Source: Azolla caroliniana (lineage: Eukaryota; Plantae; Polypodiophyta). From it: a DNA stretch of 64,000 nt. Shown here piece after piece: positions 21,575 through 50,893 of this stretch. Under the pieces are notes generated by a model. It made no database searches and was not told the origin of the DNA. It saw only the letters and a program-made list of their open reading frames with translations. The DNA is taken from contig JBHGNT010000002.1 in the NCBI GenBank assembly GCA_043228905.1, positions 19,468,001 to 19,532,000 of the forward strand, given 5' to 3'. Made by a program: the position numbers and the translations under genes. Every line of letters begins with the position of its first letter. The first letter of the stretch is position 1.

Positions 21575-21850
21575 TGTTTAATTCACTAAAACATTGATTA
21601 AATCACTAAGACAACAATTAATTCACTAAAACATTGATTAAATCACTAAGACAATAATTAATTTACTAATACATTAGTAATTAATTAATTCACTAATACT
21701 TAACTAGTTCACTAACATAATAATTTATCTACTAATACATTAATCAATTTACTATTAATTAATTAATTCACTAATACATTACTTAATTCATTAAAAAATT
21801 AATTACTTAATTGAAACTATTGATTAATTAATTAATAAGCAATTAATATA
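21575..21850. repeat. AT-rich minisatellite (aattcactaa units) into which the MULE inserted
   Basis: Near-exact 40-bp duplication at 21581-21660 plus decayed units. Similar sequence resumes after 24287. Confidence 0.7.
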
Positions 21851-24286
21851 GGAATGGGCTACCCCATTTTGGCTATTTGCCCCCCCCCCCCCACCAAAAA
21901 AAAACATAAATAAAAATAAATAAATAAACCTTTTTGGCCCCCTAAAAAAATAACTTTTTAGCCCCCTATTTTGGCTATTTGCCCCCCACCCCCCCAAAAA
22001 AAAAAAAAAAAAAAAACTTTTTGGCCTCCTAAAAAAAAACTTTTTAGCCCCCCTATTTTGGCTAAACTTACAACACTTCTTTCCCAATAACACTTACAAC
22101 AATACCTTGTTGGAACAAACATGCTTGTCAAGTGATTTGGTTGTTGTTGTGAAGTACCAAGTAGCTAAAATGAGTTATATTAATGGAAGTCAAATACAAC
22201 CTTCTTGGTATTACAAAAATAAAAATAAAAATTTGATAGTTCTCACCTCAACCAAAATGTTTTTGTGATATATATCAACCATTACACTTTACAACCTCAT
22301 AAAAAGGTTTATCAACTATTACATAAAAAGGAATCGTCGTCAATAACATTCTTAGTATTGTAGGGGCAAATAGCCAAAATGGGGGGGCAAATGCATATCG
22401 CAAGTGCGTGCATTGTGACCAGCTTGATCACATTTGGAACATTTGCGACCGGTAGAGTACTCAAATAGTGACTTCTCCCTTTGGTTGGCCTTTTTGTTCT
22501 TCGACCCTGCAGGGCGACCTCGCTTCCTAGTTACCACGACTGGATTGGAGAGAGACTGCAGTGGTGCTTGACTTGCTTCATCCAATCGTGTCATGAGAAC
22601 AACAACCTGGTCATCGTCAGTTTCATACAATCTTTGCTCAATTTTCCTCATCAAACGCTTTCTGGGAGACAAACATGGCTTAGCTATAGAGGCGTGTTGA
22701 ACCATTGAACACGCAATCAAGTGCCATTGACAGTGAATATCTTCAAGATGGAATCTTTCATTTCTTTGGATGCATCTCAAAATGTCACGACAACATGGGA
22801 CACCAAAACTTGATCGAAACAACCCCGTACATTCATCACCATAATTGTTGTCAATAACTTTCTTGTACTGCTCCAATAACTTGTCTAATGCGTGTTTGGA
22901 TATCTTCTTTACTAGCGGCCTCATGAACTTGAGTGCATGTCGATGTGCCTGTGTAGACTTGTCATACTCCATTTTGGTGTTCAATTCTGTCAGTTGTGTG
23001 TCCAGTAGTAAACGGATTTTCTTGAATACAGTGAGCAGATCGTTATTAACAATGCCTAAAACCCTCTTGACAACATAATGGTTGCCTTCAATGCGAGAGG
23101 TGCTGGTCATTCCAAAGTGAGGGAAGCGACCAGTCCAATAACGTACAATCTTGTCTTTGTGAATCAACCAAGTCTCATATACATACTGCACCAACGCATC
23201 GTGACTTGGTCGCCATTTCATTTGAAACGTGGCCCAGTTAGCCTCAAAATCTAGCTCGCTGGAAGAGTATAGAAGCTGGTTCCAGTCGTCCATATAGGCA
23301 TTTGTGTCGTCAATGCTTGCAAACTTCGTCGTTGCATAGGCCAGAATGTTTTTGTTGACATGCCAGATGCAAAGCAAATTCTTTGTAGAAGGGAACACGA
23401 TAGCAATTGCACTCATCAATGCAAGTTCTCGATCCAGTTACAATTACTGATGGCTTTGTCACAAATTCGAATGACTGCAATGCCCAAACATACATGGCTT
23501 CTATCTCGTTGCATATGAATGCAAATCCAGCATTGAACGTACTATTTGTAGCCGTAATTCCAACGATGTTGAGCAATGGCATGCCAAATCTATTCGTTTT
23601 GTAGGTGCAATCCATGACAAATACCACATTGAACCGTCTGGCAAGATCTGCTGACTTTTGATGACAAAAGAAAAGGCCACTGATTGAGCCGTTCGAGTTC
23701 ACCTTGGAATTGAAGATAAAGTCGCCAGTGGAGATCTCATCGTATAACGCTTGAATTGGCGAGCGCCCGTCAAGAAACTCGGCTCTTGCAACCACTTTTT
23801 CATTGTGGATTTCTTTCCTGGTGGTCCATTGATTTCTGGTTTTTTCTCTCAAGTAGGCCAAAGTTGAAGCCGCACCAGTTCCAGCATTTGCCATGTCGCG
23901 AACAATGGTTTTTTCTGTATCAGTTAGTCTACGAGCCGTTGATATACCACTGAGATTGTCAGAAATAGGATGATTGTGTACAATAGCTGCCTTTTTAATA
24001 GTCCATTGTCCCGTTTTCTTCGAGAAGTTTGCTCTAATGAAGAATGGGCAGTCCATTAGACGAGTCCCTATTTGTCTTTTGCGAGTATCGTCAGTCAAGC
24101 CTAGAGGGTTGCGATATTTTCCCCCATAGTAGCACTTGAAAGTGACTTTTCTATTGTCACTATGCTTATCCACCACAACAATTATATTTTGAGCACAAAA
24201 ATGGTCCTTGATAAAACTGATTTTTTTTAGGAGGCCAAAAAGGGTTTTTTTTTTTTTTGGGGGGGGGGGGGCAAATAGCCCATTCC
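21851..24286 (-). mobile_element. Mutator-like (MULE) DNA transposon
   Basis: Terminal inverted repeat GGAATGGGCTA...TAGCCCATTCC, extended by ggctatttgc(C)n(A)n..tttttggcctcctaaaaaaaa blocks. 8-bp TSD TTAATATA at 21843-21850 and 24287-24294. Confidence 0.9.
22352..24220 (-). pseudogene. MULE/FAR1-type DDE transposase with a 1-nt frameshift and no ATG start
   Basis: WRKY-like CPF..HNHP, MDCTYKTN, VT(D)RELAL, CIWH, SRIEGNH, AT-hook KRGRP and CCHC knuckle. An extra base near 23435 (act g gat cga gaa) splits the two ORFs. Confidence 0.88.
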
Positions 24287-24529
24287 TTAATATATTAATG
24301 ATTAATTCATTAGGGTTTCGGCTAAACTTAGGGTTTTAGTGAAACCTTGAGTTTGCAGCCGAGAATAGGATGTAGGATTAGTGTAGAGCATAAATTGACC
24401 CATGCGTGAAATTCGTAATATTCGACATCCGTAATATTCGTAATATTCGAGAATACAAAATGAGCCCAAGAATATTACAGAACCATTCGTTTATTTATTT
24501 ATTATTTTAAAAAATAATTTTATATACTA

Positions 24530-25030: not shown

Positions 25031-25460
25031 ACAATCAACACACCAAATCAAGAAAAAACTAAAGCAAAAACAAGACGCTACTCCAACATATTAGACACCA
25101 CCACATTAAGAAGTAGAAGCCGCAACGCGACCCCAACACAACAAGACGCAACAACAGCAAGTCGAAACCAACATACATATGGCATCTCCAATATAGAACA
25201 ACGGTGCAACAGAATGCACCGACATGAATCCTGAGTTTCTACAAGAACATAAAAAAAATCGTCAAACTTTTCAGATGGATCAACTAATACAAGCGGTATC
25301 TAACATCACAATACAATTGAATTTGACTAATCAAGCCATGCTATCTTTTTTCTCTTCGCAGATAGATAGGCACGCTAATTGCCTAGATCCACGAGTATGA
25401 CCTAAATCCTTCTCGGGTCTGCCGTTTGAGGACATCCTTTCTTGGCTCGATCATTTTGAA

Positions 25461-26147
25461 ATGGTGGCAAGCTATCATCAATGGCCCGAAGCACGGAAAG
25501 CACTAGAGATGCGAACCTTATTGGAGGGCATTGCGGCCACATGGTTCATACAACAAACAGAGGAGTCCAAGAACAATTGGTCGATACTTAAATCCCTCAT
25601 GATCGGCAATTTCACTCACCATGACTCAACTCAGACAACACTACAACAATTAGAGACCATCAAACAACAACAACATGAGCCAGTGACACAATTCGCAATC
25701 CGATTACAACAATTACTTACTCGCCCAAATCCAACAATGCTAGAATCGATGAAGTTATTCTTCTTGTGGCCATGGCTACGCCCAAAAATATATCGTCGAG
25801 TGCACGACCAAGGCCCCAAAACATTTCAAGAAGTCATCCTCATTGCGCAACGCATTGAAGTAGCAACACAAATAGAACTCCAAATGAGCTGGTCGTCCAA
25901 TGTCAATTCCGAGAAGCAGTACAACAGCAACGCCACGCCGATGGAAATCGATATCCAGAATGCTCAACTACAAGCAAGAAGGAACCTACCAACACGTGAT
26001 GCACAAGGAAGACCTAAGTGTTTTTTTTGCAACAACTATGGGCACGTGAAGAAACACTGTCGGAAATGGAGCAACCAAACACAGAAGCAAAATGTGCAAG
26101 TACAATTGGCTGTCAACAGTTACCGGGCCAACCTATCGGAAAACTGA
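25461..26147 (+). pseudogene. Gypsy E gag (5' part disrupted)
   Basis: Capsid-like region, PMEID, CFFCNNYGHVKKHC; ends SEN*. Confidence 0.85.
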
Positions 26148-28437
26148 GTCGCGGGGTGTTGAAGGGAGCACAACCCCCGCACATACAAGCATCCACATCC
26201 TCAAGTTCTCCCGTGTGCACGACCATGGCCACAATTCTCAATAGCCCGCAAGAAGTTCTCTTCAATTCCGGTAGTAGCATATCTTCCATCAACCAAGATC
26301 TGGTTGATCGCCTCAATCTTTCAACCTTCAAAGCTCCCCCGATCAAGGTGTTGTTCGGCGATCACCAACGCCTATATAAGTCCAACACCACAACCGCATG
26401 CACACTCAAGCTAGGATCCACCACAATCACGCACACCTTCTACGTACTTCCACATCAATTGTTCCCACTCACACTCGGATGTGATTGGTTCATCAAGAGC
26501 AGGGCCCAACTCGATTTCCATACGCGTCGCCTCACATTACCACAAGAAAGTTCAGTTCCCCTGTTCACAAGCAAATGCAACCAACAAATCAGTAATGCAC
26601 ATGTAGCATTAAGCAAGGAGGTTCACCTAAATGATGTCCACAAGATTTTAACTCAATACCCTGAGCTAATCAACTCATCTGACAAGCCCACTATAGTCTC
26701 TTTCCCAGTCCAACATGTCATCAACACAGGAAGCGCAACACCTGTCTGGACAACAGCAAGACGACGTTCTCCTTTAGATCATGCATGCATTGACCAAGCA
26801 GTGAATGAGATGCTTAAAAAGGGGATCATCTCACCCTCACATAGTGATTGGGTATCGGAGCCACACATGGTCAAAAAGGATGGTGGCACATACCGATTTT
26901 GTGTTCACTTTTGCAAGCTCAATCAAGTTACCATCCATGACCTTTACCCTCTGCCCCGAATAGATGACCTCTTGGGCCAGTTGGGATGCTCCAAGTACTT
27001 CACCTCTATCAATCTTGCGGTCGGATATTGGCAGATTCCAATGGACCCAAGAGATGCACATAAGACAACTTTCAGAACACGCAAAGGCCTATTCCAGTTC
27101 AACAAGATGCCATTTGGCTTGTCCGATGCAGGCAGCACATTTCAATGGATGGTAAATTCAATCTTCGCTGAATTGATCGCTGACGGTACAGTGCTCGTAT
27201 ACCTAGATGACATTCTAATTCATATTTCCACATGGCCACAACATATTCAGGTATTACAATCAGTTCTACAACGAATACAACAACACAATCTGAAATTACA
27301 GTGGAAAAAATGCAGATGGGATAGCACACAACTAAAGTTTTTGGGCTACATAATTTCTGTCGAAGGCCTACAGATGGACCCAAAGAAGACCGAGGCCGTG
27401 ACTAATTTTCCCCGACCAACCACAGTCAACTCCTTGCAGCGTTTCTTAGGCATGACAACTTTTTCACTCCGATTCATTCCGAATATGGCCACCATGACAG
27501 CACCCCTACGACACCTATTGCGAAAAGGCTCCAAGTTTGAGTGGACAACAAAATGTGAGAACAGCTTCATCCAATTAAAAACTACACTACACCAAGCAGG
27601 TCAGTTGGCTCACCCAGATTTCTCACGCCCCTTTCTTTTGCAGACAGACGCATCCAATCATGGATTGGGAGCCGTCCTACAACAAACGGATGCAACAGGA
27701 GTGGAGCACCCAGTTGCCTATATAAATCAATCCCTTACTCCTGGAGAAAAGAATTACTCCACAACAGAAAAGGAATGGTTAGCAATCGTATGGGCGTTCA
27801 CAAAGTTCCATCCCTATTTACACGGCACCCACGTCAACATCGAAACAGACCACCAACCCCTAGTCCATCTAATTAACAAGCCACACCCACCAGGTCGCCT
27901 GTTAAGATGGGCAATGGCTTTACAGGAGTATCGGTACACATTAACTTATAAAAAAGGAGTCCAAAATGTGATTGTCGATGGGTTGTCAAGAGTAGAAACA
28001 CAATGTGCTCAATTCAACCCTACAATAGTCCAATTACCCACAACGATCGCCCAGATAGCAGCCCTACAACAAGCCGACGAACAAATACGACAAATCACCC
28101 ATGACATCCAATCGACAACAAGCAAAAAGGTACACAACCATTTCCAATTGCAAAACAATGTCTTATACTTTATACAAACAGGGAAAGAGCCACGAATCTA
28201 CATACCACAAAGCTTGAGGAATTTATATAGGCAATTTTTTCACAATCACTCGATGTCTGGCCACCTTGGATTCCACAAGGTGTTGGACAAGATCTGTCTC
28301 TGATATTATTGGCCGCAAATGCATACAACGATTGCAACCTACATCAAACAATGTTAGTCATGTCAACAAATTAAGCCGCCCCATTCCAATGGCGGCCTAC
28401 TCTAGCCTATTACTATTTCTGAACCCTTTGAATTAAT
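26138..28437 (+). pseudogene. Gypsy E pol (PR-RT-RNaseH-partial INT) in the -1 frame
   Basis: LFNSGS (protease D>N), YPLPRIDD, GYWQ, MPFGL, YLDD, LQTDAS, ETDHQPL, GHLG; stops at 28301 and beyond. Confidence 0.9.
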
Positions 28438-28564
28438 CGAATCTTTAGTACTTTTGGGCTGTATGGCCTAAGCAAGGAGTGCGAGTGTATAACCTTCGGC
28501 AGTTGGATAGTTAGGGTAAATAGTATGGTACCTAAAGAATAGTATAAAAGAGAGTGGTAGGGGA

Positions 28565-28570
<6 letters not shown>

Positions 28571-28610
<40 letters not shown>
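28571..28610 (+). repeat. (GA)20 microsatellite in the PLE 3' region
   Basis: Read directly. Confidence 0.9.
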
Positions 28611-28615
<5 letters not shown>

Positions 28616-28637
28616 AATTTCAATTTATGTAAGAAAA

Positions 28638-28690
28638 GGTCTTTTGGCAAACATGTTTCGCTCTATATGAGCTCATCAATGCTAAAGGCC
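28638..28690 (-). ncRNA. Minimal type I hammerhead ribozyme (C3>U variant)
   Basis: Minus strand reads ggcctttagca-TTGATGA-GCTC-atata-GAGC-GAAA-CATGTT-tgccaaaagacc: imperfect stem I, core UUGAUGA, perfect 4-bp stem II, GAAA, palindromic AACATGTT stem III. Confidence 0.8.
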
Positions 28691-28917
28691 CGTATACAAA
28701 AATGTGAGAGGCTTATATAGGGAAAGATGCAAGAAGAGTGAAGGGGAGTGGTGGGGATGGATGAGAGGGGATTTGAATGTGTATAAAGGAGGATGTGGGA
28801 GTTAGGGAGGTAGTGAATGTAGAGAGGGATAGCTTAATGAGTTTGATGGTAAGGGATGATTTGGGGATCTATTATATTTAGTTCAAGTAGAATGATAGCA
28901 ATAGTAGTTGTGATGTT

Positions 28918-30669
28918 TTAATGGGGATTTGGGGATCTAATATATTTAGTTTTGACTAGATAAGAATAGAGTGATTTGGACTTGGTCCAACATATGAAAG
29001 GCTTAGGAATGTTTTTTAGTTGGGAATCTAGGCTAAGGTCGGTGTGTAAGTCTTTTAAGAACGAGTGGATACCTAATTTAGGGGAGTTTTTAGAGTACCT
29101 AAGCTTGAATATGGTAGGTGTAAGGGAAGTTTTGTTTTTATGCTTATGGATGAGAGTATTCCTAAGGGAGAAAGGATGTTTATTAAAGGCTTTAAGGATG
29201 AAATTTGGTGGGTAACCTCGGCTAATGAGTCTAAGGAAGAAACGTTTTTTCATTTCTAGGTACCCTATAGGTGTGCTTTCTCTAACTAGGTAGCGTTTTA
29301 ATTCGTTCGAAATAAAATTTTGTTTGACGTGTATAGGATACTCTGAGGACTAGGGAAGATATTGATAGGAATTTAATGGTTTTTGGAAACAATTGAAAGA
29401 GAACTTAGAGTTCTCTAGATTGATCCAAATATCCAAGAAAGGGAGCCTAGTGGGGGATGTATGGATCATAAGTTTAATAGAGTTATTGGTCATAAGGCTA
29501 TAGAAAATGAGGTAGTCTAAGAGTTGGGGTTTCGTACCTGTCCAAACCCCGAATGCATCATCTATGTACCTAGTAAAATAGAAGAGATGGGGTGTGGTTT
29601 GTGAGTTTTCTAGGTGTGATAAGAAAAGGCATGCATAGACAACTGAGAAGTTGCTACCCATGGCTATTCCTTTGATTTGTTGGTATACTTGATTATCGAA
29701 GGTTAGATAGTGATACTCTAGGGTTAGAGCGCTAAGGGTATAGATAAGATTGGTCTTGGCTAAGGAAAATTGGGGAGAGATGATATGGCGAAGTGCTTCG
29801 AGTCCTAACTTAGGGGGGATGTTAGGATAAAGGGATTCTACATCAAAAGAGAAGATGAAACTGTTAGGAGGGGGGGTTAGTTGTTCTAGTTTTTGGATGA
29901 GTGAGTGTGAGTCTTTTAGGTATTGTTTTTGGAGTACTAGGATGGGTAATAGTTGAAAATGTAGCCATTTCGAGGTTTGCTCGAATATCGAGTTATTATA
30001 AGAACAGATGGGTCTAAAGCTAATGGGTGTTTTATGGAGTTTAGGGAGAAAGTAAATGTTAGATACTTGATATCCCTTTACGGGTTTATGGAGTATGTAA
30101 TTAGCTTCGATAAAGGAAAGTGTCCTTAGATTTTTTTGCACTATACTATTTAGGCGATATAAGAGTTCTTCTAATGGAAAATGGGTTACTTTTCTATAGG
30201 TGGTGGTATCCGAGAGGTGGTTTATAGCTTTTTCATAATAGGTATCTTTGTCTAGAACACATACTCCCATGTTCTTATCAGCCGGAAGAACGATAATTTG
30301 GTTGTTTTTCCTAAGGCTCTTAAGGGTTGTGCGAAGGTGAAATGGTGTCCTAATGGGTTTGGGTTTAGGTTGTTGGAGTTTAGACAAAAGGAGGGTTTCA
30401 TGTTTTTTAATAATATTTTCAAGAGGGGGATATTGAGATGGTGGATTCCAGTTAGAATTTGGTAGTTTAAATGGATTAAGGGGGGGTGAGTCCATGTCTC
30501 TAAAGAAATGTTTTAAACGTAAAGATCTACTTAAACTAGCAAATTCTTTAATGATAGTATTAGTGGAAGGTAGAGAGGATGGTGGAATGTATTTGAGTCC
30601 TAAGCTTAGCAATTGTGTTTCATTATTTGTGAGGGGGTGTTTAGATAAATTGTGAATTTTACTTTCTAT
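28918..30669 (-). pseudogene. Penelope-like reverse transcriptase, one internal TAG at 29350, no C-terminal GIY-YIG
   Basis: HNLSKHPLT..LLSLGLKY, PADKNMG, LPKLHK..RPI, FDVESLYPNIP, GIAMGS, RYIDD, PFLD, QKP..QYLP*SS, RGYP; the two ORF pieces share a frame. Confidence 0.9.
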
Positions 30670-31197
30670 TCAAAGGGTAGCACTAAGTGGTTTCCAAAAC
30701 TTTTTTCGTGGTCTATTACTATTGGATTTTTTATGGCGTGGGCAGAAGGGGAAAGATGTATTTGTATTACCTAGCCACATAAAAGTGTCTGGGGTGGAGG
30801 TGGTCCTATTAAGAAGATAAAATAGGCATCTACAAGGATGCACGACGTGTCTAAAGTGTTTGTTAACACGCTTAGCACGCCGTGCTAGTCGTTTTTTGGT
30901 CGGCTAGAAGGTGGGTTCCTATGGTGTGTGGTAGGGGGAGGATTAGTGGAGTGTGGTGTATTTCTATAATGTTTATGATTAGGATAGGAGGGAGGGGTGG
31001 TGTGGTGGGTGAAGGGGGTTTTTATATTAGAGAGGGGATAATAAGAAGGAGGTTTATTAAGATACGAGGAAGGGGTAGAGTATGAATTAGAGGGGGGGGG
31101 TTTCAACAAATGGGGTAAAAAAAAAGTGAGATAAAGGAGGGGGAGGGGTAGTATGTGAATTAGGGGCAAAATAGGGGGGGGGGGGGGGGGACATGAG

Positions 31198-32490
31198 TTA
31201 GATTATCGGGAAGTAATGCAGGGGCATGTATGAGATATGGAAATAATTGAGAGGGAGAGGGGAGGGGATGAGGCATTTGTTCATAGAGGCTGCCTCCATA
31301 TGAAGACAAAGGGGGATGTGAGGAGGGAACCGAGAAATGGGAGTAATTAGGGTTCTAAAAACGTGAGAGGTGAGGCTGTTGTGAGCATGGATGAGGGGTT
31401 GGAAGGAGGGGCGGCGCAAATGTGTGTTGGCTGCCTTGCGCAGTCCCAAACAACGCACCATGTAGGGAGGGGGAAGTGTGCACGAGATGGCTGTCCATAC
31501 TCGTTTACAATAGGGGGGGGGGAACGATTGATGAAAGAGGCCACGATCAACCACGGCATGTTGCTGGTTATTGTGCAGTGGATCACGTTTCTGTGATGTC
31601 CAATTATTGTAGGGCGTACCATGTGTACAGCGGAGAAGGGGCGGTGGCGGCGGCGAGAAGTTTTGTTGGCGGCTTTGATTCGTAACAGAGTGTTGAAATT
31701 GTTGTCTTGAAATGTTTGGCAGGTGCGGTTGACGATAGTATGGTGGATGGAGCTCGGGGACGGTGTTAGGAGCCGGAGGACTTATATGAGCGGGGAGATG
31801 ACCGAGGCCTATCGTTGCGAAAGCTTGTGGTGAGCGAGAATGGTGCGGTTCATTATTGGCAAAGTTTGGGTTATGAAAAAGAACTTGAGGCCCTCCATGG
31901 TTGGGATAAGGTTTAAATGCTTGTTTAACCTCATTAGTTGCGGTGTTGCAGGTGAAAAGGAGGTTAGATGCTCGATGACAAGGACGTTGCGCTTGTTTGG
32001 AGTTATTATTGGAGCGGTGGTTTGGGTTAGGGTGAGAGTTAGGAAAAGGGTTAGTGGTATTTTTGGAATTAGAGTTAGTGTTTGGGTTAGACTTAGGTTC
32101 TGGATTAGGGTTTAGGGTAAAGTTTAGATTCTTTTTGGGGTTGGGTGTGGGTGTGTGATTAGAATTTTTATTTAGGTTAATAGTATGGGGGACAGAATTT
32201 TTAGTGTTATTTATCTCGACTTCTACGGGAGCAATGTACGAGGGACTGTCATAAAACATTTCATTATCATTTTCTTCTTCCCCTTCATACATTGTAATGT
32301 CTATATCTCTAATATTAGGGTTTTCATATCTATTTTGTGCTCTTGTTTTATCTCTAAGTTCCGTGGCCGTTCTCTTAAGTGTATCATCAATGTTGTGATT
32401 TAGTGCGAAATCGTCACACATTTTTAGGATTTCAGAGCCGAAATCTTGTAGTAACGTATTAATTGTTTCTTGAAAATTAGCTGACTCAAC
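31198..32490 (-). CDS. PLE ORF1 (N/P/Q-rich, 5'-truncated, unknown function)
   Basis: Over 400 open codons upstream of the RT on the same strand; frame is open to the junction near 32490. Confidence 0.5.
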   Translation of the reverse strand, partial: VESANFQETINTLLQDFGSEILKMCDDFALNHNIDDTLKRTATELRDKTRAQNRYENPNIRDIDITMYEGEEENDNEMFYDSPSYIAPVEVEINNTKNSVPHTINLNKNSNHTPTPNPKKNLNFTLNPNPEPKSNPNTNSNSKNTTNPFPNSHPNPNHRSNNNSKQAQRPCHRASNLLFTCNTATNEVKQAFKPYPNHGGPQVLFHNPNFANNEPHHSRSPQAFATIGLGHLPAHISPPAPNTVPELHPPYYRQPHLPNISRQQFQHSVTNQSRQQNFSPPPPPLLRCTHGTPYNNWTSQKRDPLHNNQQHAVVDRGLFHQSFPPPYCKRVWTAISCTLPPPYMVRCLGLRKAANTHLRRPSFQPLIHAHNSLTSHVFRTLITPISRFPPHIPLCLHMEAASMNKCLIPSPLPLNYFHISYMPLHYFPII

Positions 32491-32998
32491 ATATGATGAT
32501 ACATCCTCAAAATGGGAGACGGTTCACGCGCAAAGAGAAGGGGAAGAAGAAGATGTCAGATTATGAAACCGGTAATGATGAGTCAGATCAGAGCGGATCC
32601 GACTCCGGAAAGGAAAATGACGGCTCTTCGGCACCAAAGACCGAACCGGCCAAGAAGGGCCTCAAACCGGGTAACGGTGGGTTACGCCGGTCAACCCGCC
32701 AACAGGAACCTGTTAAGTGGTATGGGTACAATGAGTACATGGCGCATCACTATGCGTACATGACCTAGGTGGTGGAAGTGCGTGAGTCAGAGAGTTACGC
32801 AGAAGCGGCAAGGGATGCAAATTGGCGTGCCGCTATGGAGGAAGAGATGCGGGCACTTGATGCCAACGATACATGGGACCTGGTTGACCCTCCCCATCAC
32901 AGTAAACCGATCGGATGCAAGTGGTTGTACAAGGTAAAGTACAACGCCAACGATTCAATTAACCGGTACAAGGCCCGGTTAGTGGCAAAGGGATACGC

Positions 32999-33796
32999 TG
33001 TCGAGATATTACGCAAGTGCGTGTGGAAACGAGGCGGGACCGCGGGGGTCTCGAACCAAAGAGCAAGCGAGGGAGGAGAAAGAGAGAGAACCGGCTACGC
33101 AGGACCGGGGATACACAGGGACACGGCCCTTCAGCACGGAGAACGCGAACAGACACCGACACAGACAGATGCGAATGACTAAATATGTATATTAACAAAA
33201 AAAAAAATGGCTAACACGACTACAACCCTCGATGGGGCACAGGTTGGTTACAACCGAACAGGCCGGCGAACAGATGCCGATGCTTGTTCGCTTCGACGCA
33301 CAAAGGGGTAGCAGGTCGGAGGTGCTACCGGAAGCACTCGGGCGTTCCTCGAAACAGCGCGAGCCTCCTCGGAACCCTGCACAGAAAGCTATGGAGCTCA
33401 AGAAGGAAGGAAACAGAGAGAGAAGCGTCCAGAAACGGTCCGACAGCACTTCGTCCTCTCTGCGCGAGATGCCTGCAACAGCTCTTTCCTGCTCCTTATA
33501 TAGGCCGACGAGCAGGCCGTCATGTCAGCTTTATTCCCTGTCCCTTTCGGACAGGGATCCGCTCCGTTCTTCACGCATCCGCGTAGTTACGCCGCCGACT
33601 CGTACAGTTCCTTAGCTCGCGCGCGCGACCGAAAAGACTGTTCGCGCGGTCTTTGTCTCCACTTGTCTTAGGGCCCGTTCCTGCCGATTATCCTCCTAAT
33701 TCGCTTCTATGTACAACTTGGAGCGTGCGCGCGTGAAGAACCGGTTCCCACGCCTTGGTGCGCCGATTCCGCTTATGGACGGTTTTCTTCACGACA
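32999..33796 (-). repeat. 3' LTR of Gypsy A (798 bp)
   Basis: TGTCG...CGACA ends; 33030-33796 matches 47398-48161 with 4 substitutions and one 3-bp indel seen. Confidence 0.92.
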
Positions 33797-33867
33797 TCCG
33801 CCCCCACCTAACCGCGCATCCTCCGGTATGCGCCAAGAGAGTTGGGACGGAGAAAACCGGCCCGTCT

Positions 33868-36551
33868 TCATTCCTCGCCCGTCGGTTCTTCCTCGCTTTC
33901 GGATCGTTCGTCACTGCTGACTAGGAGAGCCGGGTCTGGCTCGTCGTCGTGTTGCTTCTTGAACGCTTTGATCCGCTTCCCTGCAACCGGTATCGCCATT
34001 CTCGTGCCGTCGAGTTCCGCCAGGTGATATGTCCCGTTGTCATTGGCGCTCCGTACCACGTAAGGCCCGAACCACCTTCGTGCGAACTTCCGTGTAGCTC
34101 GGTGCTGGTTGTCGAGGCTGCTGTCGTAGACGAGCACCCAGTCACCTTCTTCGATTTTCTTCTGTCGGAGCCGGTGCGTTCGGTCGAACCTGGCTTTGTT
34201 CTTTGTCCTCGCCACCCGGAGCTTCTCCGCAGCCAGTTCCACGTCCTCCGGTCTCCGCTCGAGCTGTCATATACGCGCAGCCAACAACTCCTCCCGGCTC
34301 ATCTCGTCCCTCCAGTCGACCGTTGCCCACGAGGAGATCGTCCGTTCCATCGGCATGATCGGCTTCTGGCCGAACATGAGCTCCGTCGGCATGTACCCGG
34401 TTACCGAACTGTGCGTGGTTCGGTCTGCCCACAAAGCATAAGGTAGCAGCCGCGGCCAGTTACCGACTTGGCCTCCGCATGCTCGAACCAGCGCCTTGAC
34501 AATCGGCCCGTGTCTGCGCTCCACCTTTCCATTCGCCTCCGGATTGTACGCAGTGGTGAGCGAGAGCTTGACTCCCAGCCGGTCCAACAGCTCCGCGGCT
34601 TCTTCGGCGTCCAACTCCCCTCGGTCAGCCACGATCTTCCCGACGCATCCGTTCCGGCATATCACGTCCTCGATTAGGAACCGACATACGGCCGTAGTCG
34701 TTTTGTTCCGAAGGGCTCGGCATTCCACCTGGTTCGTCAGATCTTCCCGCGCTAGGACCAGATACCGCATCTGTCCTACTCCCATTGGCATCGTTACCAG
34801 ATCTACCATCCATTTGAAATGGATGGCCGGAGGGTACGTAGGGTGAAGCGCGTCTCGATGTCGGACTATGGAGTGCATCTGACAGCTCTCGCAAGTTGTC
34901 ACGAACCGATGCACGTCCTGGTACTGCCCCGGCCACCAATACTTCCCCTTCAGTTTCTCAAACGTAGCCCATGTTCCACGGTGTCCAGCCCAAGGGCTGT
35001 CGTGGTAGGCCGCTAGCAGCTCCTCCTGATCTTCCTTCATTGCCACCACCCGGAGCGGGACGCCGTTCCTCTTCTTCGGGTGCTTCCACAAGTATCCATC
35101 CCGGAGAAAGAACCGGTACGCTTTCTTCCGGATCCGGTTGGCCTCGTCCTTCGTCCATGACGCATCGGGCGTCATTGTCTTCAAAAACCCACCGATCTGC
35201 AGCCACTCCCCGTCGTACTTGCTCGCGTCGAAGTCGTTAAGCGCCGGAGTGCTTGTTCCGTCGGTTGTTACATACGCAGTCTCGAAGAAGTCCACGCCGA
35301 CCTCTTCGTCCTCCGAAACCATGCCGCCCTCGTCATCGAATCTCGCCCTTGAAAGCATGTCGGCCATGGCGTTGTCTTTCCCGGAAATGTGTCGTATTTC
35401 CGGGTCCAGGGACTTGATGTACGCTATCCACCTGAGCATTGCCAGGTCCGGCGTCGCGCATCCGGAAACCATGCCGAGAATCGGCATGCAATCCGTCTCT
35501 ATGATTACCTCTATCCCGATCAGATAGTCCTTGTCGGCCTTCACCGCCGAAACGATACCCCAGAGTTCGCGTTTAACCTGGGCGTATCCTCGCTGCCGCT
35601 CACTGAGGACCTTCGCGCCGAATCGGATCGGAAACCGATTGCCGTCCTCGTCTTCTTGGTTGACGACCCACCCGATTCCGGTCGGACTCGTGTCAACCGT
35701 TATGTACACTGGGGTGCCCTTCCTGTAGACGGCCTTTCGGAGCGCCGGTGCTGCCGAAAGAGCCTCCTTCAGCTTCTGGACCGACTCCGTGTGCTTGTCT
35801 AGCCATTCGAATCTTCGCCCTTTCTTCAATAATCCGTACAGCGGCTCCGCGACGTGCGCGTAATGCGGGATCCATATGTGGTAGAAGGCGCATGCTCCCA
35901 AGAATCTTCGTACTTCCATGACCGAGCTGCAATCAGGCTTCATCGCGGAGATGGCTTCTACCTTTGCCGGAGACGGTTTCCGGCCATATGGTCCACATAA
36001 ATGTCCGACCACCATGATTTCCGACTGCCCGAAGGCTGACTTCTCCCCCGAGAAGGTGAGCCTCGCATCCTCTAGCCTTTGCAGCACCTTCTCGCAGTCG
36101 TCGACGTGCGTCATCACGAATCGCCGGCATCCGTCCGGCCCGATCGTCTCGTCCTTCTCTTCTACCGGGCATCCCTTGATCGGGATGTCGTCTAGAAACC
36201 GCATGGTGATGTCCGGGATGCAGTCCCTCAGCACCTTGTTCATTGCATTCACCATGTGGGCCACCGAGTTGGTCCCTCCTTGCGGCAGCGTACACATCCG
36301 CACTAGGCCGAGGGGAGTTCGCATCGTCGTAATGTCTCTGCTCTCCACGGCTAGCTGGAACTAGTCGTACCCTGAGTATAGATCACCGACCGAGTAAATC
36401 GACCTTCCGGCGAAGGCCTCCGCGAACTCGTCTATGGTCGGTCCGATCCCTGCGTTCCGAATGGTCACCCTATTGACCGGTTGCAGGTCCTGAATGAAGC
36501 GCAATGATCCGTTTTTCTTTGGTACGGTAAACCATCGGTTTGAATACGGGG
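33868..36551 (-). pseudogene. Gypsy A pol (RT-RNaseH-INT)
   Basis: LPQGGTNS, FLDD, TVDTS, ETDC, HDSPWAGHRG, MVDLV, ADRGE, NGKVER; nonsense codons at 36361 and 34267. Confidence 0.9.
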
Positions 36552-37686
36552 TGTCGTGGCGTGGCTTGCCTAGAAGCGTAGCGTTGCGTAGACAAATGAA
36601 ATCGTGAAAGTGAGGAAGGAATCACTGGGATTATGGACGGAAGAGACGAAAGAGTAGAGATAGATAAATAGTGATCAACAAGATATGACAATATAGGATA
36701 TAGAATGATATTTGAAGCAATAAAAGAGATTTATAATTATTTGATAAAAGAGTTACAAAATGATTGTGCACATCGTTGAACCTCCGAACTTTGTCTTGCA
36801 AGGTAATCGCTCTTCTCTTTCTTGATCGTAGACCATTACAATCTTCACTTCAATATTTTGATGAAGATAAGGCTCGAACCGCCTCCCTCTTGTTGAGAGT
36901 TGACCACCACGACCGCCAAGCTAGAGCTCTACGTTTATGTTAAACTTCTTCCCTTCTTTCTCTATTTTTATGGTATCTCTTATGAAATACATAATTTGAT
37001 TGATATCTCATACATATCTCCCTTTGATATTCTCTTTCACCATTTAAATAGGTGCCCCCATGCATATGATGCATTGGAGGGTACAAATCATGCATGTAGT
37101 GCATGAAATGCATGTGATGCATGATCGTCATTTGGCGTTCATGTATTACATGTGATGCATGATAAACATCTCGCTCATTTGAGCTTTTATGTATGAAACA
37201 ATATATGCAATAACAATAAACATGAAAACATAATCTTAAAGAGAAAGGGCCTATCCTAATGGTAGGTGTGTCAACTTTGGTGTATGAGGTTGTGGGTTTG
37301 AGTCTCAAAATGCTATTGAATACAACATACAACTTTATTTTTATATCATGAAGCAAATCCTTTATGTAATATAAAGTATATATAAAGTATGTTTTATTTT
37401 ATGTATATTACTAGTATAGAGTAAATGGTAAGATTTGAGAGTCATAGGGTGGGGTTATTGGTTCAAGTCCTCTCTTGTTTGTGTAATATAATATATTTAT
37501 CTATATATATATATTATTTTTCTTTACATATATATAATATTATCATATGTGTTGTTAACATTATATAAAACATTATCAAATGTTATTTTAGTTACGTATT
37601 TATCTTATTGTAGACTTTTAATGTGAAGCTTTCGTACTTCACGACATCCACCCCCTCTAGACCTGCACATCCTCCGGCATGTGCCA

Positions 37687-40600
37687 CTATCTTTCATCTT
37701 CATGTTGATCTATTTGAGGAGGTTCAAGCTCAAACCTTTTCTTAAATACTTTTATCCTCTTTCCAGCTACCACGTTTAGGATTAGTGTCCCATCCAATTC
37801 ACTAAGCTTATAAGTAAAGTTATCATATACTTTTCTTACTATATAAGGCCCAAACCATCTTTCAGCGAACTTGCGGACGGTGCTATGTTGATTATCTAAA
37901 CTGCTATCATACACGAGCACCCAATCTCCTTCTTCTATTTTCTTAGGTCGAATTCTATGACTTTTATCAAAACGGATTTTATTCTTTAGTCGAGCCTCCT
38001 TCAATCGTTGGGCTGCTATTTCTATATCTTCAGGTCGACGCTCTAATTGTTGAATTCGCAAAGCAAGCAATTCTTCTCTGCTCACCTCTTCTCTCCATGG
38101 AATAGATATCCATGACATAATTGATTCTTCTATCGGCATGATGGGCTTTTGGCCAAGTATCAATTCAGCTGGCATGTATCCTGTTACTGAACTATGAGTT
38201 GTTCGATCCGCCCATAGTGCATAAGGTAGCATGCGTGGCCAATCTCTTATTTTACCTTTACAGCTTTTCACGATCGCCTTAACTATTGGGCTATGTCCTC
38301 TTTCAATCTTTCCATTGACTTCTGGATTATACGCAGTTGTAAGTGATAATTTGACCCCTATTCGGCTGAAGAATTCTCTAGCTTCTTCAGAGTCGAGTTC
38401 TCCTCTATCTGCAATTATTTTACCAACACACCCGTAACGACATATTACATCTTCTAACAAAAATTTACATACAGCTCTAGTTGTTTTTTGTCGTAGTGGT
38501 CTTCCTTCTACTTGGTTTGTAAGGTCTTCTCTTGCTAGTACTAAATATCGCATTTGACCTTCCCCAAGTGGCATTGTCACTAGATCAACCATCCATTTAT
38601 AATGCATTGATGATGAATATGTTGGTTTTAGCTCATCTCGATACCGGATAGTTGAATACCTCTGGCAAACCTCACAGGTTTCCACAAATTTCGTTACATC
38701 TTTATACATATGTGGCCACCAATACTTTTCTTTCAACTTCATAAATGTCGCCCATATGCCTCTATGTCCTGCCCACAAACTATCATGGAATTCATTAATT
38801 AATTTTCTCTTAACGTCATCCTTACAAATGACTCGAAGAGGATTCTCGGTTGGCCTTTTTGGACGCCTCCATAAATGCCCTTCATGTAAAAAAAACTTCA
38901 ATGCTCGTCTTCGAAATTCATTTAATTGTTTCTTTGACCATGATGGGTTGGCTTCTTGAGTCTTTAGAAAATTTCCTATTTCTAACCATTGACCTTCATA
39001 CTCTGTGTCTTTGAACATTATACTTACATAAAACTCATCATGAGGCGTAATAGATTCTTGATGAGCAAATTGATGGCTTGTAGTTGCCCAGTACTTATCT
39101 TCAGTTTGCATCACCTTTTAATTTATGAACCTTGCCCTTGACAGCATATCTGCAACTGGGTTGTCTTTTCCTTTTATATGCCGCAATTCTGGGTTCATGG
39201 TTCTGATGTATGCAATCCACCGAAGCATTGCAATATCTGGTGTCGTGCAACTTGCTATCATTCCAATGAGTGGCAAACAATCTGTTTCAACCACTACATC
39301 TGCTCCGATCAAGTAATCTCTATCTGTTTTTAATGCAGTAAGCAAACCCCACAATTCTCGTTTAACTTGTGCATAGTTTCTTTGTCTTTCATTTAATATC
39401 TTTGCTCCAAATCTGATAGCATATCGATGTTGGTCTTCATCTTCTTGGTTGATAACCCAACCGATCCCGATTGGGCTAGTATCAACTGTTACTATAATTG
39501 GTCTTTCACCTTTGTAGTCTGGTTGACGAAGAACTGGTGCTTTCAGTAATGCTTCTTTCAACTGTTGAACAACTTGTGTATGTTCATCAGTCCAAATAAA
39601 CTTCTTTCCTTTTCTTAAAAGTTGGTAGAGAGGATCTGAGACATGTGCAAAGTGTGGTAACCAAATATGATAAAACACACATGCACCCAAAAATCTTCTC
39701 ACCTCTGTTACCGAGTCGCAAACTTCCTTCATATTTTGTATTGCGTTAATTTTGATCGGTGAAGGCTTCCTCCCATACCACCCACACATATGACCAACTA
39801 TTAGAACTTCGTTTTGCCCAAAGCAAGACTTTGTTCCTGATAGTGTCAAATGTACCTGCTCAAGCTTATTTAAAATACTTTCACAGTCATTAATGTGATC
39901 CATCACAAACTTTCTACAACCATTTCCAACCATAGTCTCATCTTTCTCTCTTTCTAAGCATCCCTTAATAGGAATATCATCTAAAAATGGCATAGTTACC
40001 TTTGGGATGTACTCATGTAGAACCTTGTTCATTGCATTCATCATATGAGCAACTGAATTTGTCGCACCTTGAGGTAGAGTGCACATTCGAACCAACCCAA
40101 TTGGTGTTTTCATTGTTGTGATATTGCGACTATCAATTGCTAGTTGAAATTGGTCGTATCCTGAATATAGATCTCCCACAGAGTAAATCGCTCTTCCAGC
40201 AAACGCTTCTGCAAATTCATCAACGATCGGTCCGATTCCCGCATTTCGGATTGTGACCTTGTTGACTGGTTGTAGATCTTGAATGAATCTTAGAGAACCA
40301 TCTTTCTTCGGAACTGTGAACCATCTATTGGAGTATGGTGCATTTGAAGGCTCTAAAATCTTCATCTTGACTTTATCCTTCAACAGCTCCAACAATTGAG
40401 GTAATCGAGCTCTTGGTACTGCAATAGGCTTAAAATTCCAAGGAATATGAGGGATAGTAAATATTACCATTGGCGTCACCACCTTTGGATTTACACAACC
40501 AATCTCCTCAGCTTTGAATGCGAACGCTTTCCCATGCCTAAAGATCATTTCTTTGAAAGTCGCGATCTCTGATTGCAGAAGAAATTCACCCCTTCCGATT

Positions 40601-41150
40601 CTCAAGTTATTTATTGTCTCCGAAGTGAAGTGATGTCCAATCTTCTCTATTGGTCGAAGCATAGGCTCAGTTGCTGCTGCCTCCATCTTCTCTTCACTAC
40701 CAATAGGTAATGGTACTGCAGCAGGTTTGACCTTTTTATCTATTGTTTTGTATTTTGTATTACATAAACTTTCTACTTCTTCATATTTACAATTATACCT
40801 ATCAATCTCATAATACATATCAATTGAGTTTACATGTATCTTTCTAACATTCTCATCACCTTCTTTCAAATACATTTCTAACTCTTCTAAAGTATTTGCA
40901 AAAGAAATTTCTTCCATAACACTTTCAATCTGCTCTTCCATTTCAAGTACTCCATTATCCTTCAATGCCTGCTGAAACAAATTAGCATTCTTTTTCAAGT
41001 TCCTCTTGCATTCATACATCCTAGTCACACATATAGCACCACTTTCAGAAACATGAAATGACTTATTCATATGTTGTAATGCCCTATATGAGGGTCTTTT
41101 AATAATGGGACTATTGCAACCCTCACTCGCAACAGTCCTAGTCAAAAACC
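37687..41150 (-). pseudogene. Gypsy B pol (RT-RNaseH-INT), one in-frame TAA at 39118
   Basis: FIQDLQPVN, DLYSGYDQ, LPQGATNS, PFLDD, HDSLWAGHRG, GKIERGH; ORFs 39118-41169 and 37687-39114 share a frame. Confidence 0.92.
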
Positions 41151-43312
41151 TGATTATCAAAATCATCACAGTCTTTTGGTATTAAATGATCACGAAGCTC
41201 TTGCTTGTTTCTCTCATGATTTGGGCGAACTGTCATAAATTGTACAGTTCGTCGTCCATCTTGGCTACGGATTTTCGCATAGGCAGAACCATTGTCAAGG
41301 ACTTTGGTCTCCATCCGTACCGCTGTAATGTATGGTTGCCCTAGGATTATTGGATAGGTAGATCCTTCCTGCACAAAGAAATGTTGATCTACCTCTATAT
41401 CACCAATAGTAACCTTTACATTTGGGCATGCACCAAATAAATCTTCCGTGACTGATGTGGCAGCTTTTACTCGCCAACCATGTTGAGTATCAATTGGCCA
41501 TCTACCTTTCCTGTAAAAATCAGCACTCATTATATTTATTTCAGAACCATGATCAATAAGTGCCATCACGGGGTCTGGAACATTTCCAATCTTCACATGA
41601 TGCTCAGTAGTGGCTCTTGCCCAACATTTGAGAGAGTAATGGCTTCTTACATCTGTTGAATTTATCATTGAGGTTGATGCATGTTGAGAGTCAACAACAA
41701 TATTGTTTGACTCGTTGCTCACCACTTCATATGCCACCTTCGGATTTGTCTCTTTAACCTGCTCATTTACTTGCTTCTTTCTTCGCACAATATCAATTAT
41801 TTCATCATGAAATTCCTTTTTTGCAATACCTAATACTTCTCTTAGTGTAAATTCTACTCGACTGTCTAGTATTCTTGTTTCTAAAACTTTCTTTAAATCT
41901 GTATCCTTTTCAATATCAGACATTAATTTGAATGAAGGACCAGATTTACCTTTTTCAACTTTTGCGTCCATCTCTTTTCTTTTGCTTTCTCTTGTTTCAT
42001 GCTTTTTGGTTGAGCCAATCTCATCATCCGATCTTTTCCTTTTTTCTTCCACTATCACCTCATGCTCTTGGTGTTCTGCCATTTGAGCATAGACTGTCAT
42101 AACATCTACTGGAACATCCCATCCAGTGTTTTTCCTCACAGAATCTCCGGCAACACGAAGGTCTTCCATCTTCATCTTTTGTTTTTGTGCGGTACTTACA
42201 ACCTTCTCCCAGAATGGTGATCGGGATGGCATGTCATCGAGGCGCACCCCTGCCGTTGCCGAGTAGTACATTGCGGAAGCCTTCTTTGCTTCAGCTTCTT
42301 CAAATTTAACCTTAACACCACCATCACCAAAGTTCTTTGTAAGCGGAGATCTAGTTTCAGTTAAGTAAATGTTACCATTTTTCCAATAGACCAAGTCTCG
42401 ATTCTCCATGTCTTTATATTCTTCACAATCACGTAGACGATGGTCGAGACTATCACACCACATGCATCGAGGTCGAAATGGTTCCCTTGACCTCGAAGTC
42501 TGACCATTCTCAAGCTTTGCCACTTTAATTGTTAGATCTTTCATACTTTGAACTAAATCATCAAGCAAAAACTCACTCTTAGTTCCCGTCATTTCTCGTG
42601 GTTGATGGACCATTTCGTGTGATGGTTCTCGACCAAGTCTTTGAACTTCGATGTTTTGCTCAAGCCGATTTGTGTTTCCCACATGTGGTATTTGTAGCAT
42701 TACACCATTCCTTTGCATTCTTTTCATAAATTTATTACAATCATTTGTTACCTCATTCCAATCTGTCGTTATACCATCCTCGGTATTTGGCACTTCAAGC
42801 ATAAATTCCAATTCTTTTCTATATCTCTTGTCAACTGCCTGCAAAAATAAAGCAACCTTTTGCCAAGACAAAGAATTTCTTTCTTCTGGCTTTAGGTGTC
42901 CATACATCCTATCAAACTCTCTTTTTGTGTCAGACACAGATAACCCTTTATCTTCTTTTAAGATCCATTCATGAAATGAACGCATAGTAACTCGAGAGAA
43001 ATCCTCACGAGCATATTCAGACACAAGTGCTTCTTCGAATGCATTCCAATCCAAACTATGCAATGCTTGTATTTCATGAATTCTATCTCTTAATTCCATG
43101 TCCACTAATTTATAAAAGTTTGCTATCATATTGACATCATTTATACCAAACATTTCCATTTCATCATAATATATATTCACATACTTCGAAATATTTGTGC
43201 CATCAAACATACCAATCTTCTCTCGGACTTCTCGTAAGGCATGAAATAATCGATCTTGATTCAACTTTTCAATAAACAACATTACCGGATCCATTGTACT
43301 CGTACTTGCCAT
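41138..43312 (-). CDS. Gypsy B gag-protease ORF (724 aa)
   Basis: CMWCDSLDHRLRDC knuckle, ALIDHGSEIN protease motif, ILGQPY. Confidence 0.9.
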   Translation of the reverse strand: MASTSTMDPVMLFIEKLNQDRLFHALREVREKIGMFDGTNISKYVNIYYDEMEMFGINDVNMIANFYKLVDMELRDRIHEIQALHSLDWNAFEEALVSEYAREDFSRVTMRSFHEWILKEDKGLSVSDTKREFDRMYGHLKPEERNSLSWQKVALFLQAVDKRYRKELEFMLEVPNTEDGITTDWNEVTNDCNKFMKRMQRNGVMLQIPHVGNTNRLEQNIEVQRLGREPSHEMVHQPREMTGTKSEFLLDDLVQSMKDLTIKVAKLENGQTSRSREPFRPRCMWCDSLDHRLRDCEEYKDMENRDLVYWKNGNIYLTETRSPLTKNFGDGGVKVKFEEAEAKKASAMYYSATAGVRLDDMPSRSPFWEKVVSTAQKQKMKMEDLRVAGDSVRKNTGWDVPVDVMTVYAQMAEHQEHEVIVEEKRKRSDDEIGSTKKHETRESKRKEMDAKVEKGKSGPSFKLMSDIEKDTDLKKVLETRILDSRVEFTLREVLGIAKKEFHDEIIDIVRRKKQVNEQVKETNPKVAYEVVSNESNNIVVDSQHASTSMINSTDVRSHYSLKCWARATTEHHVKIGNVPDPVMALIDHGSEINIMSADFYRKGRWPIDTQHGWRVKAATSVTEDLFGACPNVKVTIGDIEVDQHFFVQEGSTYPIILGQPYITAVRMETKVLDNGSAYAKIRSQDGRRTVQFMTVRPNHERNKQELRDHLIPKDCDDFDNQVFD

Positions 43313-43356
43313 GTTGATGTTGATCTTTACTTTAGATGTCTCTTCTACTTCCCCGT

Positions 43357-43374
43357 TTCACGTCGGGTTCACCA
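43357..43374 (-). promoter_or_regulatory. Primer binding site, tRNA-Trp
   Basis: TGGTGAACCCGACGTGAA, complementary to the recalled plant tRNA-Trp 3' end TTCACGTCGGGTTCACCA. Confidence 0.8.
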
Positions 43375-43379
43375 AATTG

Positions 43380-44474
43380 TGTCGTGGCGTGGCTCGCCTA
43401 GAAGCGTAGCGTTGCGTAGACAAATGAAATCGTGAAAGTGAGGAAGGAATCACTGGGATTATGGACGGAAGAGACGAAAGAGTAGAGATAGATAAATAGT
43501 GATCAACAAGATATGACAAGATAGGATATAGAATGATATTTGAAGCAATAAAAGAGATTTATAATTATTTGATAAAAGAGTTACAAAATGATTGTGCACA
43601 TCGTTGAACCTCCGAACTTTGTCTTGCAAGGTAATCGCTCTTCTCTTTCTTGATCGTAGACCATTACAATCTTCACTTCAATATTTTGATGAAGATAAGG
43701 CTCGAACCGCCTCCCTCTTGTTGAGAGTTGACCACCACGACCGCCAAGCTAGAGCTCTACGTTTATGTTAAACTTCTTCCCTTCTTTCTCTATTTTTATG
43801 ATATCTCTTATGAAATACATAATTTGATTGATATCTCATACATATCTCCCTTTGATATTCTCTTTCACCATTTAAATAGGTGCCCCCATGCATATGATGC
43901 ATTGGAGGGTACAAATCATGCATGTAGTGCATGAAATGCATGTGATGCATGATCGCCATTTGGCGTTCATGTATTACATGTGATGCATGATAAACATCTC
44001 GCTCATTTGAGCTTTTATGTATGAAACAATATATGCAATAACAATAAACATGAAAACATAATCTTAAAGAGAAAGGGCCTATCCTAATGGTAGGTGTGTC
44101 AACTTTGGTGTATGAGGTTGTGGGTTTGAGTCTCAAAATGCTATTGAATACAACATACAACTTTATTTTTATATCATGAAGCAAATCCTTTATGTAATAT
44201 AAAGTATATATAAAGTATGCTTTATTTTATGTATATTACTAGTATAGAGTAAATGGTAAGATTTGAGAGTCATAGGGTGGGGTTATTGGTTCAAGTCCTC
44301 TCTTGTTTGTGTAATATAATATATTTATCTATATATATATATTATTTTTCTTTACATATATATAATATTATCATATGTGTTGTTAACATTATATAAAACA
44401 TTATCAAATGTTATTTTAGTTACGTATTTATCTTATTGTAGACTTTTAATGTGAAGCTTTCGTACTTCACGACA
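43380..44474 (-). repeat. 5' LTR of Gypsy B
   Basis: Five substitutions seen relative to 36552-37646. Confidence 0.95.
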
Positions 44475-47375: not shown

Positions 47376-47397
47376 GGCCTCTGCAAGATCCGACCCC

Positions 47398-50663: not shown

Positions 50664-50830
50664 TCATCCGGCTCCGTAACCTGGGTCTTCAGCATCCGGC
50701 TCCGTAGCCGGGGTCTTCATCATCCGGCTCCGTAGTCGGGGTCTTCAGCATCCGGCTCCGTAGTCAGGGTCTCTTCATCCGGCTTCATGCCGGGTACTCT
50801 TCATCATCCGGTTCCGTAACCGCAACCGGG
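50664..50830. repeat. ~27-bp tandem array inside the D LTR (also near 56561-56727)
   Basis: catccggctccgta..cggggtcttca repeated 4-6 times. Confidence 0.85.
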
Positions 50831-50893
50831 CTTGCCGTCATTCATCTCCGGACATCCCATCCGGAGAGACCGAAATCCCAACAAACTCCCCCT

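Follow-up and report, generated by a model that had tools for sequence, protein, structure and literature searches.

Penelope-like elements (PLEs) without an endonuclease (EN) have been listed for Selaginella, Pinus and Picea (PMC9033089; this and the other papers are cited by accession for the passages drawn on), and those of Selaginella are telomeric and carry hammerheads (PMC4209133, PMC12477314). A Coprina with two open reading frames (ORFs) has been described (PMC13159263), loss of the EN inside EN-bearing (EN+) clades is documented, and the EN-less PLE-X elements occur genome-wide in Chara, with their insertion mechanism left open (PMC8557442). Priming of EN-deficient PLEs at double-strand breaks has been proposed (PMC3846280), and the way in which EN-less PLEs enter non-telomeric sites is treated as an open question (PMC8557442). 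Here, we analyze a 64-kb stretch of the 523-Mb genome of Azolla caroliniana (positions 19,468,001-19,532,000 of contig JBHGNT010000002.1; hereafter, the window, in whose coordinates features are given), which contains a 5'-truncated copy of an EN-less PLE on the minus strand (28438-32514), together with the families to which this copy is related. These families are spread through chromosome interiors and, in our judgment, likely insert by reverse transcription onto 3' ends at breaks that the element did not make. EN-less plant PLEs were already known and break priming had been proposed; what appears to be new is the interstitial spread with kilobase-scale duplications of host sequence. The literature searched did not describe an EN-less PLE dispersed through a plant genome and flanked by duplications of this kind, although conifer work may already describe the clade.

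An endonuclease-less PLE and its relatives

The second ORF of the window copy (ORF2, 30903-28918, minus strand, 661 codons) encodes a PLE reverse transcriptase (RT) with the hallmarks GLKY and DKN, motifs RT1-7 with YIDD, a thumb and a C-terminal extension, and ends in KYIRSPNPH* after the thumb, as an earlier note made from the letters alone had read it. The match to Pfam RVT_1 was weak (E 4e-5, below the cut-off). The RT is closest to telomerase RT (TERT): the 12 best Foldseek matches of the AlphaFold model of ORF2 (pLDDT 85) in the PDB were all TERTs. Two premature stops, at about 30672 and 29352, interrupt the frame, and the window copy is thus a dead fragment, both 5'-truncated and stop-interrupted; the value of the finding lies in the family. 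A genome search with the RT yielded 98 matches at 67-100% identity, with the best 96 of 519 candidates scored, and ORF2 is open over 660-680 aa in many sister copies. We recognized five families, A-E, which are 65-77% apart in ORF2. The window copy belongs to family A and is 96.2% identical to positions 842-4904 of L063, a full-length natural family A copy of 4,904 bp.

Neither the element nor families A-E have a detectable EN. The earlier note had seen no GIY-YIG domain C-terminal to the RT or upstream, and the wider searches bore this out. Pfam detected none in the window copy or in ORF1 and ORF2 of several families and relatives. A PLE-specific hidden Markov model (HMM), built from 18 PLE GIY-YIG domains and run in six frames over the window and 1.28 Mb of related loci, a check like the one that the note had proposed for a family consensus, found nothing on any PLE; its best scores there were 10-12 bits, on sequences holding flanking Gypsy, whereas 55 proteins, among them the 18 of the model itself, scored 19-142 bits. 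Being made from C-terminal, CCHH-type ENs, the model is less sensitive to Chlamys ENs. No nuclease fold is shown by the models of ORF2 and ORF1, the latter of low confidence. A stretch LFY...WLG, considered as a decayed GIY-YIG, was rejected, being neither conserved nor scoring. In all five families, and in complete gymnosperm and other relatives, ORF2 stops at the same point after the thumb. Genome-wide, PF01541 gave three matches among nine candidates in a weak search (L161-L163, with short open frames), which are probably host genes.

Among named proteins, those of Cryptomeria japonica and Ginkgo come closest, at 40-42% identity. In a tree of the 157 rows that remained once those lacking a match to DK or YxDD had been removed, calculated by a quick method without bootstrap or a named outgroup, a 27-row clade (SH-aLRT 100) unites the five families with 22 close relatives. 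It has no EN+ member and stands among EN-less RTs, apart from all 22 EN+ rows. The phylogenetic check suggested earlier gave one clade shared with Cryptomeria and Ginkgo proteins. No named Coprina (Sm1, Sm2, Cc1, Pt1) or Athena RT was among the protein matches to the family RT, so that likeness to these groups is by description, as is the comparison with Sm1/Sm2 and the Pinus and Picea elements. To call the family little-described is fair, but its kind, as noted above, is already on record. Cryptomeria, a conifer, has eight near-identical RTs of 626-639 aa; seven lie on contigs of 15-52 kb, a pattern that hints at young arrays.

Like the Coprina-type elements (Selaginella Sm1/Sm2, fungal Coprina-1_Alen) and the conifer EN-less PLEs, with which it shares relatives in Cryptomeria and Ginkgo, the present group combines a DKN-RT-thumb protein without an EN, a hammerhead in the terminal repeat, 5' truncation and telomeric repeats on some 5' ends, and Coprina-1_Alen also has an upstream coiled-coil ORF (PMC13159263). 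Unlike Coprina-type elements, the copies are mostly interstitial and uniformly spread rather than terminal, some of them are flanked by kilobase-scale duplications, and family A has no C-rich telomere-complementary tract; a 3' end on telomeric repeats at a chromosome end, which characterizes Coprina, was absent from the junctions inspected, some ends being unfinished. With Athena/Terminon of bdelloid rotifers, the group shares two ORFs with a frameshift before the RT ORF (here a prediction), a coiled-coil ORF1, a hammerhead and head-to-tail chains (PMC8557442, PMC12477314). Athena, by description, is rotifer-specific and primes on G-rich telomere overhangs, whereas here arbitrary internal ends appear to be used through 1-7 nt of microhomology.

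PLE-X, the EN-less Chlamys of Chara and Selaginella, is likewise an EN-less, hammerhead-bearing, non-telomeric plant PLE (PMC8557442), but the Azolla elements have a separate ORF1 and show no CxC, no fingers insertion and no long Cys-bearing N-terminal extension. The IFD, an insertion of 20-40 aa in the fingers between motifs A and B, is absent (58 residues in close relatives that align to family A with no gap, against 60-63 in two EN+ controls), and a CRC in the window copy was rejected as the Chlamys CxC, other copies having CRR, SKR, AKR, CKR or TKR. Since both CxC and IFD are absent, the families are not Naiad, Chlamys or PLE-X as these are defined in the cited part of PMC8557442. The C-terminal GIY-YIG of Penelope/Poseidon (including Dryad), Neptune, Nematis and Hydra was not found, nor was the N-terminal GIY-YIG of Naiad/Chlamys (Pfam on ORF1 and ORF2, six-frame HMM on full-length units). 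Partial tandems that produce pseudo-LTRs, frequent 5' truncation and a hammerhead in the terminal repeat are all present, as in the PLE order. PLE-X of Selaginella is targeted to 28S rDNA. In the Azolla families, resolved flanks are other repeats at many unrelated sites; no search aimed at 28S rDNA was made.

Insertion junctions

We examined 53 insertions (51 copies, one composite locus and one array), of which 49 were scorable. Four loci in satellite or telomeric DNA (L091, L099, L139, L140) do not enter the duplication count, nor were scores given to L068, L069, L074-L076, L077, L079, L080, L100, L113, L114, L116, L119, L120 or to the arrays on unplaced contigs. Apparent 5' ends at L061, L064, L066 and L104 proved to be later nested insertions and were re-scored. 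The scorable set comprised 13 complete duplications of the target, two partial duplications, five deletions, one weak deletion and 28 insertions that could be assigned to no class.

The complete duplications measure 38, about 60, 109, 120, 125, 354, 391, 482, 979, 1438, about 3050, 3138 and 3826 bp, and the duplicated flanks are 97-100% identical. Eleven were tested and are not pre-existing tandems; in a control, 2 of 150 random pairs scored, both pure satellite. Because older duplications are 2-3% diverged and one bears a later insertion in one copy only, they are not echoes of the assembly. At the five deletions, 0-37 bp are missing relative to uninterrupted homologues. No convincing target-site duplication (TSD) of 6-30 bp was found among the 51 copies, the candidates being a 22-mer inside satellite and two 7-mers that were offset, one of them at a satellite locus excluded from the count. 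At all eight loci measured, the 3' junction shows microhomology of 1-7 nt, on average 3.0 nt where 0.78 would be expected, and inspection of 10 targets by eye revealed no evident sequence in common.

Three loci illustrate the range of outcomes. In L095, three TTTAGGG repeats separate the duplicated target end from the cDNA. At L141/L062, a family D copy grown from the left and a family A copy grown from the right, both of which end in telomeric repeats, lie between the two arms of a 38-bp duplication. On contig C22, a 23-kb insert consists of four units that are 99.9-100% identical, with the 3,826-bp duplication. Two other copies are rearranged, hinting at template jumps: one has a duplicated terminal repeat that restarts at the hammerhead cut (L115, 6630-7017), and the other has an inverted 3' piece at its 5' end (L071, 5304-5421).

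Genomic distribution

The 68 chromosomal RT loci are uniform along the chromosomes (Kolmogorov-Smirnov p 0.40), with 36 of 68 in one orientation and no bias. The same holds for 38 family A 3' ends (p 0.22; 21 of 38 in one orientation), none of which lies within 100 kb of an end. Mapping of the copies relative to telomeres, which the earlier note had called for, thus gave a uniform interior spread, with telomeric repeats nevertheless occurring in the wider family. None of the 3' ends inspected sits on CCCTAAA repeats. On the telomere-bearing contigs C46 and C60, the 3' end of the PLE faces the telomere, opposite to what the terminal model would require, and C294 has satellite in between.

The 178-bp subtelomeric satellite is a frequent host of copies on unplaced contigs. 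Where it stands beside telomere arrays, it is rich in young copies and tandem arrays from families B-E (L090, L144-L147, L226, L228, L236), and one family E 3' end has microhomology to it. Another family E 3' end (L140, 8935-9015) is joined to a short internal TTTAGGG tract in the sense strand, the reverse of a terminal Coprina junction.

Proposed mechanism and alternatives

We infer that the families prime on host-made 3' ends. Transcription of a tandem unit would start from the TATA-like box of the terminal repeat upstream, the hammerhead would trim the transcript, and ORF1 and an ORF1-RT fusion would be made, the latter by -1 frameshifting. The RT might then anneal a few bases of its RNA, 30-50 nt past the conserved motif GCACTCCTYG, to a broken end and copy until it falls off or proceeds into further units, after which host repair would join the cDNA to the other end. 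If that end is trimmed, a deletion would result; a long 3' overhang there, or prior extension of the end on the sister chromatid, would instead duplicate between tens and thousands of host bases. The other end may sometimes be extended beforehand by a second PLE or by telomerase, the presumed source of the telomeric repeats.

EN-independent L1 insertions offer a parallel in their target deletions and proposed role in break repair (PMC1920257), and Dualen, a long interspersed nuclear element (LINE), in its long variable flanking duplications, with a median of 900 bp, compared with 126 bp for R9 (PMC9977147). Both L1 and Dualen have a different class of RT and endonucleases of their own; the present elements appear to have no route other than the EN-free one.

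Long variable duplications are reported for Dualen, a LINE with two endonucleases (PMC9977147), and the Azolla PLEs could in principle depend on nicks made in trans by a LINE APE or RLE or an undetected EN+ PLE, or on a cryptic nuclease in ORF1 or ORF2, with target-primed reverse transcription and a far second nick. We regard this as unlikely. A LINE-like ORF, named by eye, does adjoin one copy (L068); against this, no EN+ PLE was found with two queries, there are neither short TSDs nor an evident target consensus, and the protein models lack a nuclease fold. Furthermore, PMC3846280 reports no cross-mobilization of EN-less by EN+ PLEs in a rotifer, and the telomeric repeats together with the entry of two families at one site call for a persistent, two-ended break. 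For the nuclease supplied in trans that the earlier note suggested, an EN+ PLE as source found no support, although nicks from LINEs or other host enzymes might contribute; the note's proposal of an EN-less PLE at an internal location that inserts at DNA breaks agrees with the family-wide tests.

The CCCTAAA-like repeats that adjoin the hammerhead of families D and E, the telomeric caps at L062, the small terminal excess and the copies in subtelomeric satellite could instead point to an ordinary telomeric Coprina whose copies reach the interior later, by fusion or rearrangement. This is quite improbable, given that both flanks derive from one target at 18 loci, that the spread is uniform, that family A has no C-rich repeats, and that no inspected 3' end lies on CCCTAAA, with the reversed orientation on C46 and C60 and the intervening satellite on C294 telling the same way. 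Least credible of all is that the family spread with a GIY-YIG domain and lost it recently: such loss within EN+ clades is documented (PMC8557442), but five families and their complete relatives end at the same point after the thumb, identical young copies already lack the EN, and the neighboring branches are EN-less.

Several observations nonetheless weigh against priming at breaks that the element did not make. Terminal loci are mildly over-represented (3 of 68 within 100 kb of an end, where 0.6 would be expected), several copies on unplaced contigs lie in the subtelomeric satellite, and, with only 96 of 519 RT candidates scored and some chromosome ends unfinished, terminal copies may be under-counted. 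The 28 unassigned insertions among the 49 include the window copy, two duplications are partial and one deletion is weak; later deletions could mimic truncation, and the youngest duplications (99.9%) rest on the assembly. The genome-wide nuclease searches were weak, with the three PF01541 matches and a single EN query that returned none. Since nuclease-bearing Dualen also makes long duplications, these are no proof against a nick directed by the element.

Going further, we lean slightly toward the view that a land-plant, TERT-related clade has abandoned the niche at telomeres and depends wholly on internal breaks, competing with telomerase for 3' ends and routinely making tandem host duplications of up to several kilobases. 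If so, each insertion is a record of the repair of a natural break. The junctions of many young copies, some of them with open RT frames, offer direct evidence and make the system testable. They bring together a TERT-like RT and the addition of telomeric repeats at one internal break, and they tie a nuclease-free element to host duplications as long as those reported for a dual-nuclease LINE.

Unit architecture and predicted expression signals

We defined the unit from L063 and from tandem arrays of families C, D and E. It runs from a TATA-like box through the hammerhead core, a pyrimidine-rich tract, GCACTCCTYG, the ORF1 ATG, ORF1, a slippery site and ORF2 to the 3' untranslated region. In the window copy, all on the minus strand, the TATA-like box lies at 28712-28721, about 40 nt upstream of the hammerhead core; it is present in all five families and is likely the promoter for the next tandem unit. 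A type I hammerhead-like motif with a minimal palindromic helix III follows at 28632-28695 (also delimited as 28679-28646), then a (TC)n tract at 28566-28610 and GCACTCCTYG at 28473-28482, a motif shared by families B-E. The (TC)n tract was rejected as a target site, as it is internal to the element, in its own terminal repeat.

The hammerhead and the frameshift site (30899-30885) had been missed in the first reading. In the window, the hammerhead scores below threshold (Rfam HH9, 18.6 bits, E 0.79) and has UUGAUGA in place of CUGAUGA, the core otherwise being conserved across families; its fold z is -1.1, against -2.7 to -3.9 in four other copies. Cutting is predicted after GUU, at about 28650, and the only full-length family A copy starts 1 nt past the predicted cut (n=1). 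Among family A 3' ends, 32 of 41 lie 31-51 nt from the start of GCACTCCTYG, just before the ORF1 ATG of the next unit. Degenerate CCCTAAA-like repeats follow the hammerhead in families D and E and are absent from A, B and C.

ORF1 of L063 is about 755 aa long, with an all-helical coiled-coil domain followed by an N/P-rich low-complexity tail. Its conserved part was modeled as long helices only, at low confidence (pLDDT 55); a fold search with this model gave nothing at E<=0.001, and the best ESM Atlas score, 0.80, is a lead only. The low-complexity ORF1 that the earlier note placed before the RT is present in the window (30885-32514), though it is 5'-truncated by about 209 codons and the remainder is frameshifted. 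The Pro-Asn repeats of ORF1 are encoded by CCCTAA-like DNA (window 32020-32120; also ORF1 of L082), and truncation of the telomere-capped family A copy in L062 falls at a site of this kind.

An ORF1-RT fusion by -1 frameshifting is predicted from a signal at 30840-30899, in which the heptamer A AAA AAC (30899-30885) precedes the ORF1 stop and is followed by a GGCGTG...CACGCC stem. The heptamer is unchanged in all seven aligned sequences; the stem was predicted on six sequences, with two-sided changes in 3 of 16 pairs. Family E lacks a Met at the position of the first Met in the others, which favors frameshifting.

Surroundings of the window copy

The copy extends to 32514, rather than to 32492 as first proposed. 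Its 3' end adjoins, with 2-3 nt of microhomology, a plus-strand Gypsy gag-pol (25401-28437) cut where the integrase core begins, and to this extent the placement of the copy within a Gypsy integrase holds; its 5' end adjoins an abundant plus-strand Copia fragment that runs into a Copia RT (32515-33029), so the copy does not lie inside one element. A search of 20 kb on each side beyond the window did not recover the remaining halves of the flanking Gypsy and Copia. A long duplication at this copy was rejected, since neither flank recurs within the same distance, and the best genome matches of the flanks, at 94-95%, are at other loci (40 candidates scored per search). We infer that the junction of Gypsy with Copia reflects a larger deletion or rearrangement, at insertion or later. 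As stated in the earlier note, no telomeric array is present in the window, and the nearest contig end is 8.9 Mb away. The contig begins with a CCCTAAA array, and a telomere of the TTTAGGG type is shown for this genome.

Elsewhere in the window, a DNA transposon with terminal inverted repeats at 21839-24280 looks Mutator-like by eye and has minus-strand ORFs at 22352-23437 and 23310-24335. Nested long terminal repeat (LTR) elements occupy 33030-47697, 36550-54630 and 50197-56719, with a 99% LTR pair 14.4 kb apart inside Copia, another pair 5.9 kb apart, and a three-copy repeat of 99-100% identity. The segment 12001-13000 has a strong G skew (0.46), as does the PLE, but no RT or DNA match to the element. 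Finally, a minus-strand frame of 591 codons, rich in Arg/Ser repeats, lies at 8817-10592.

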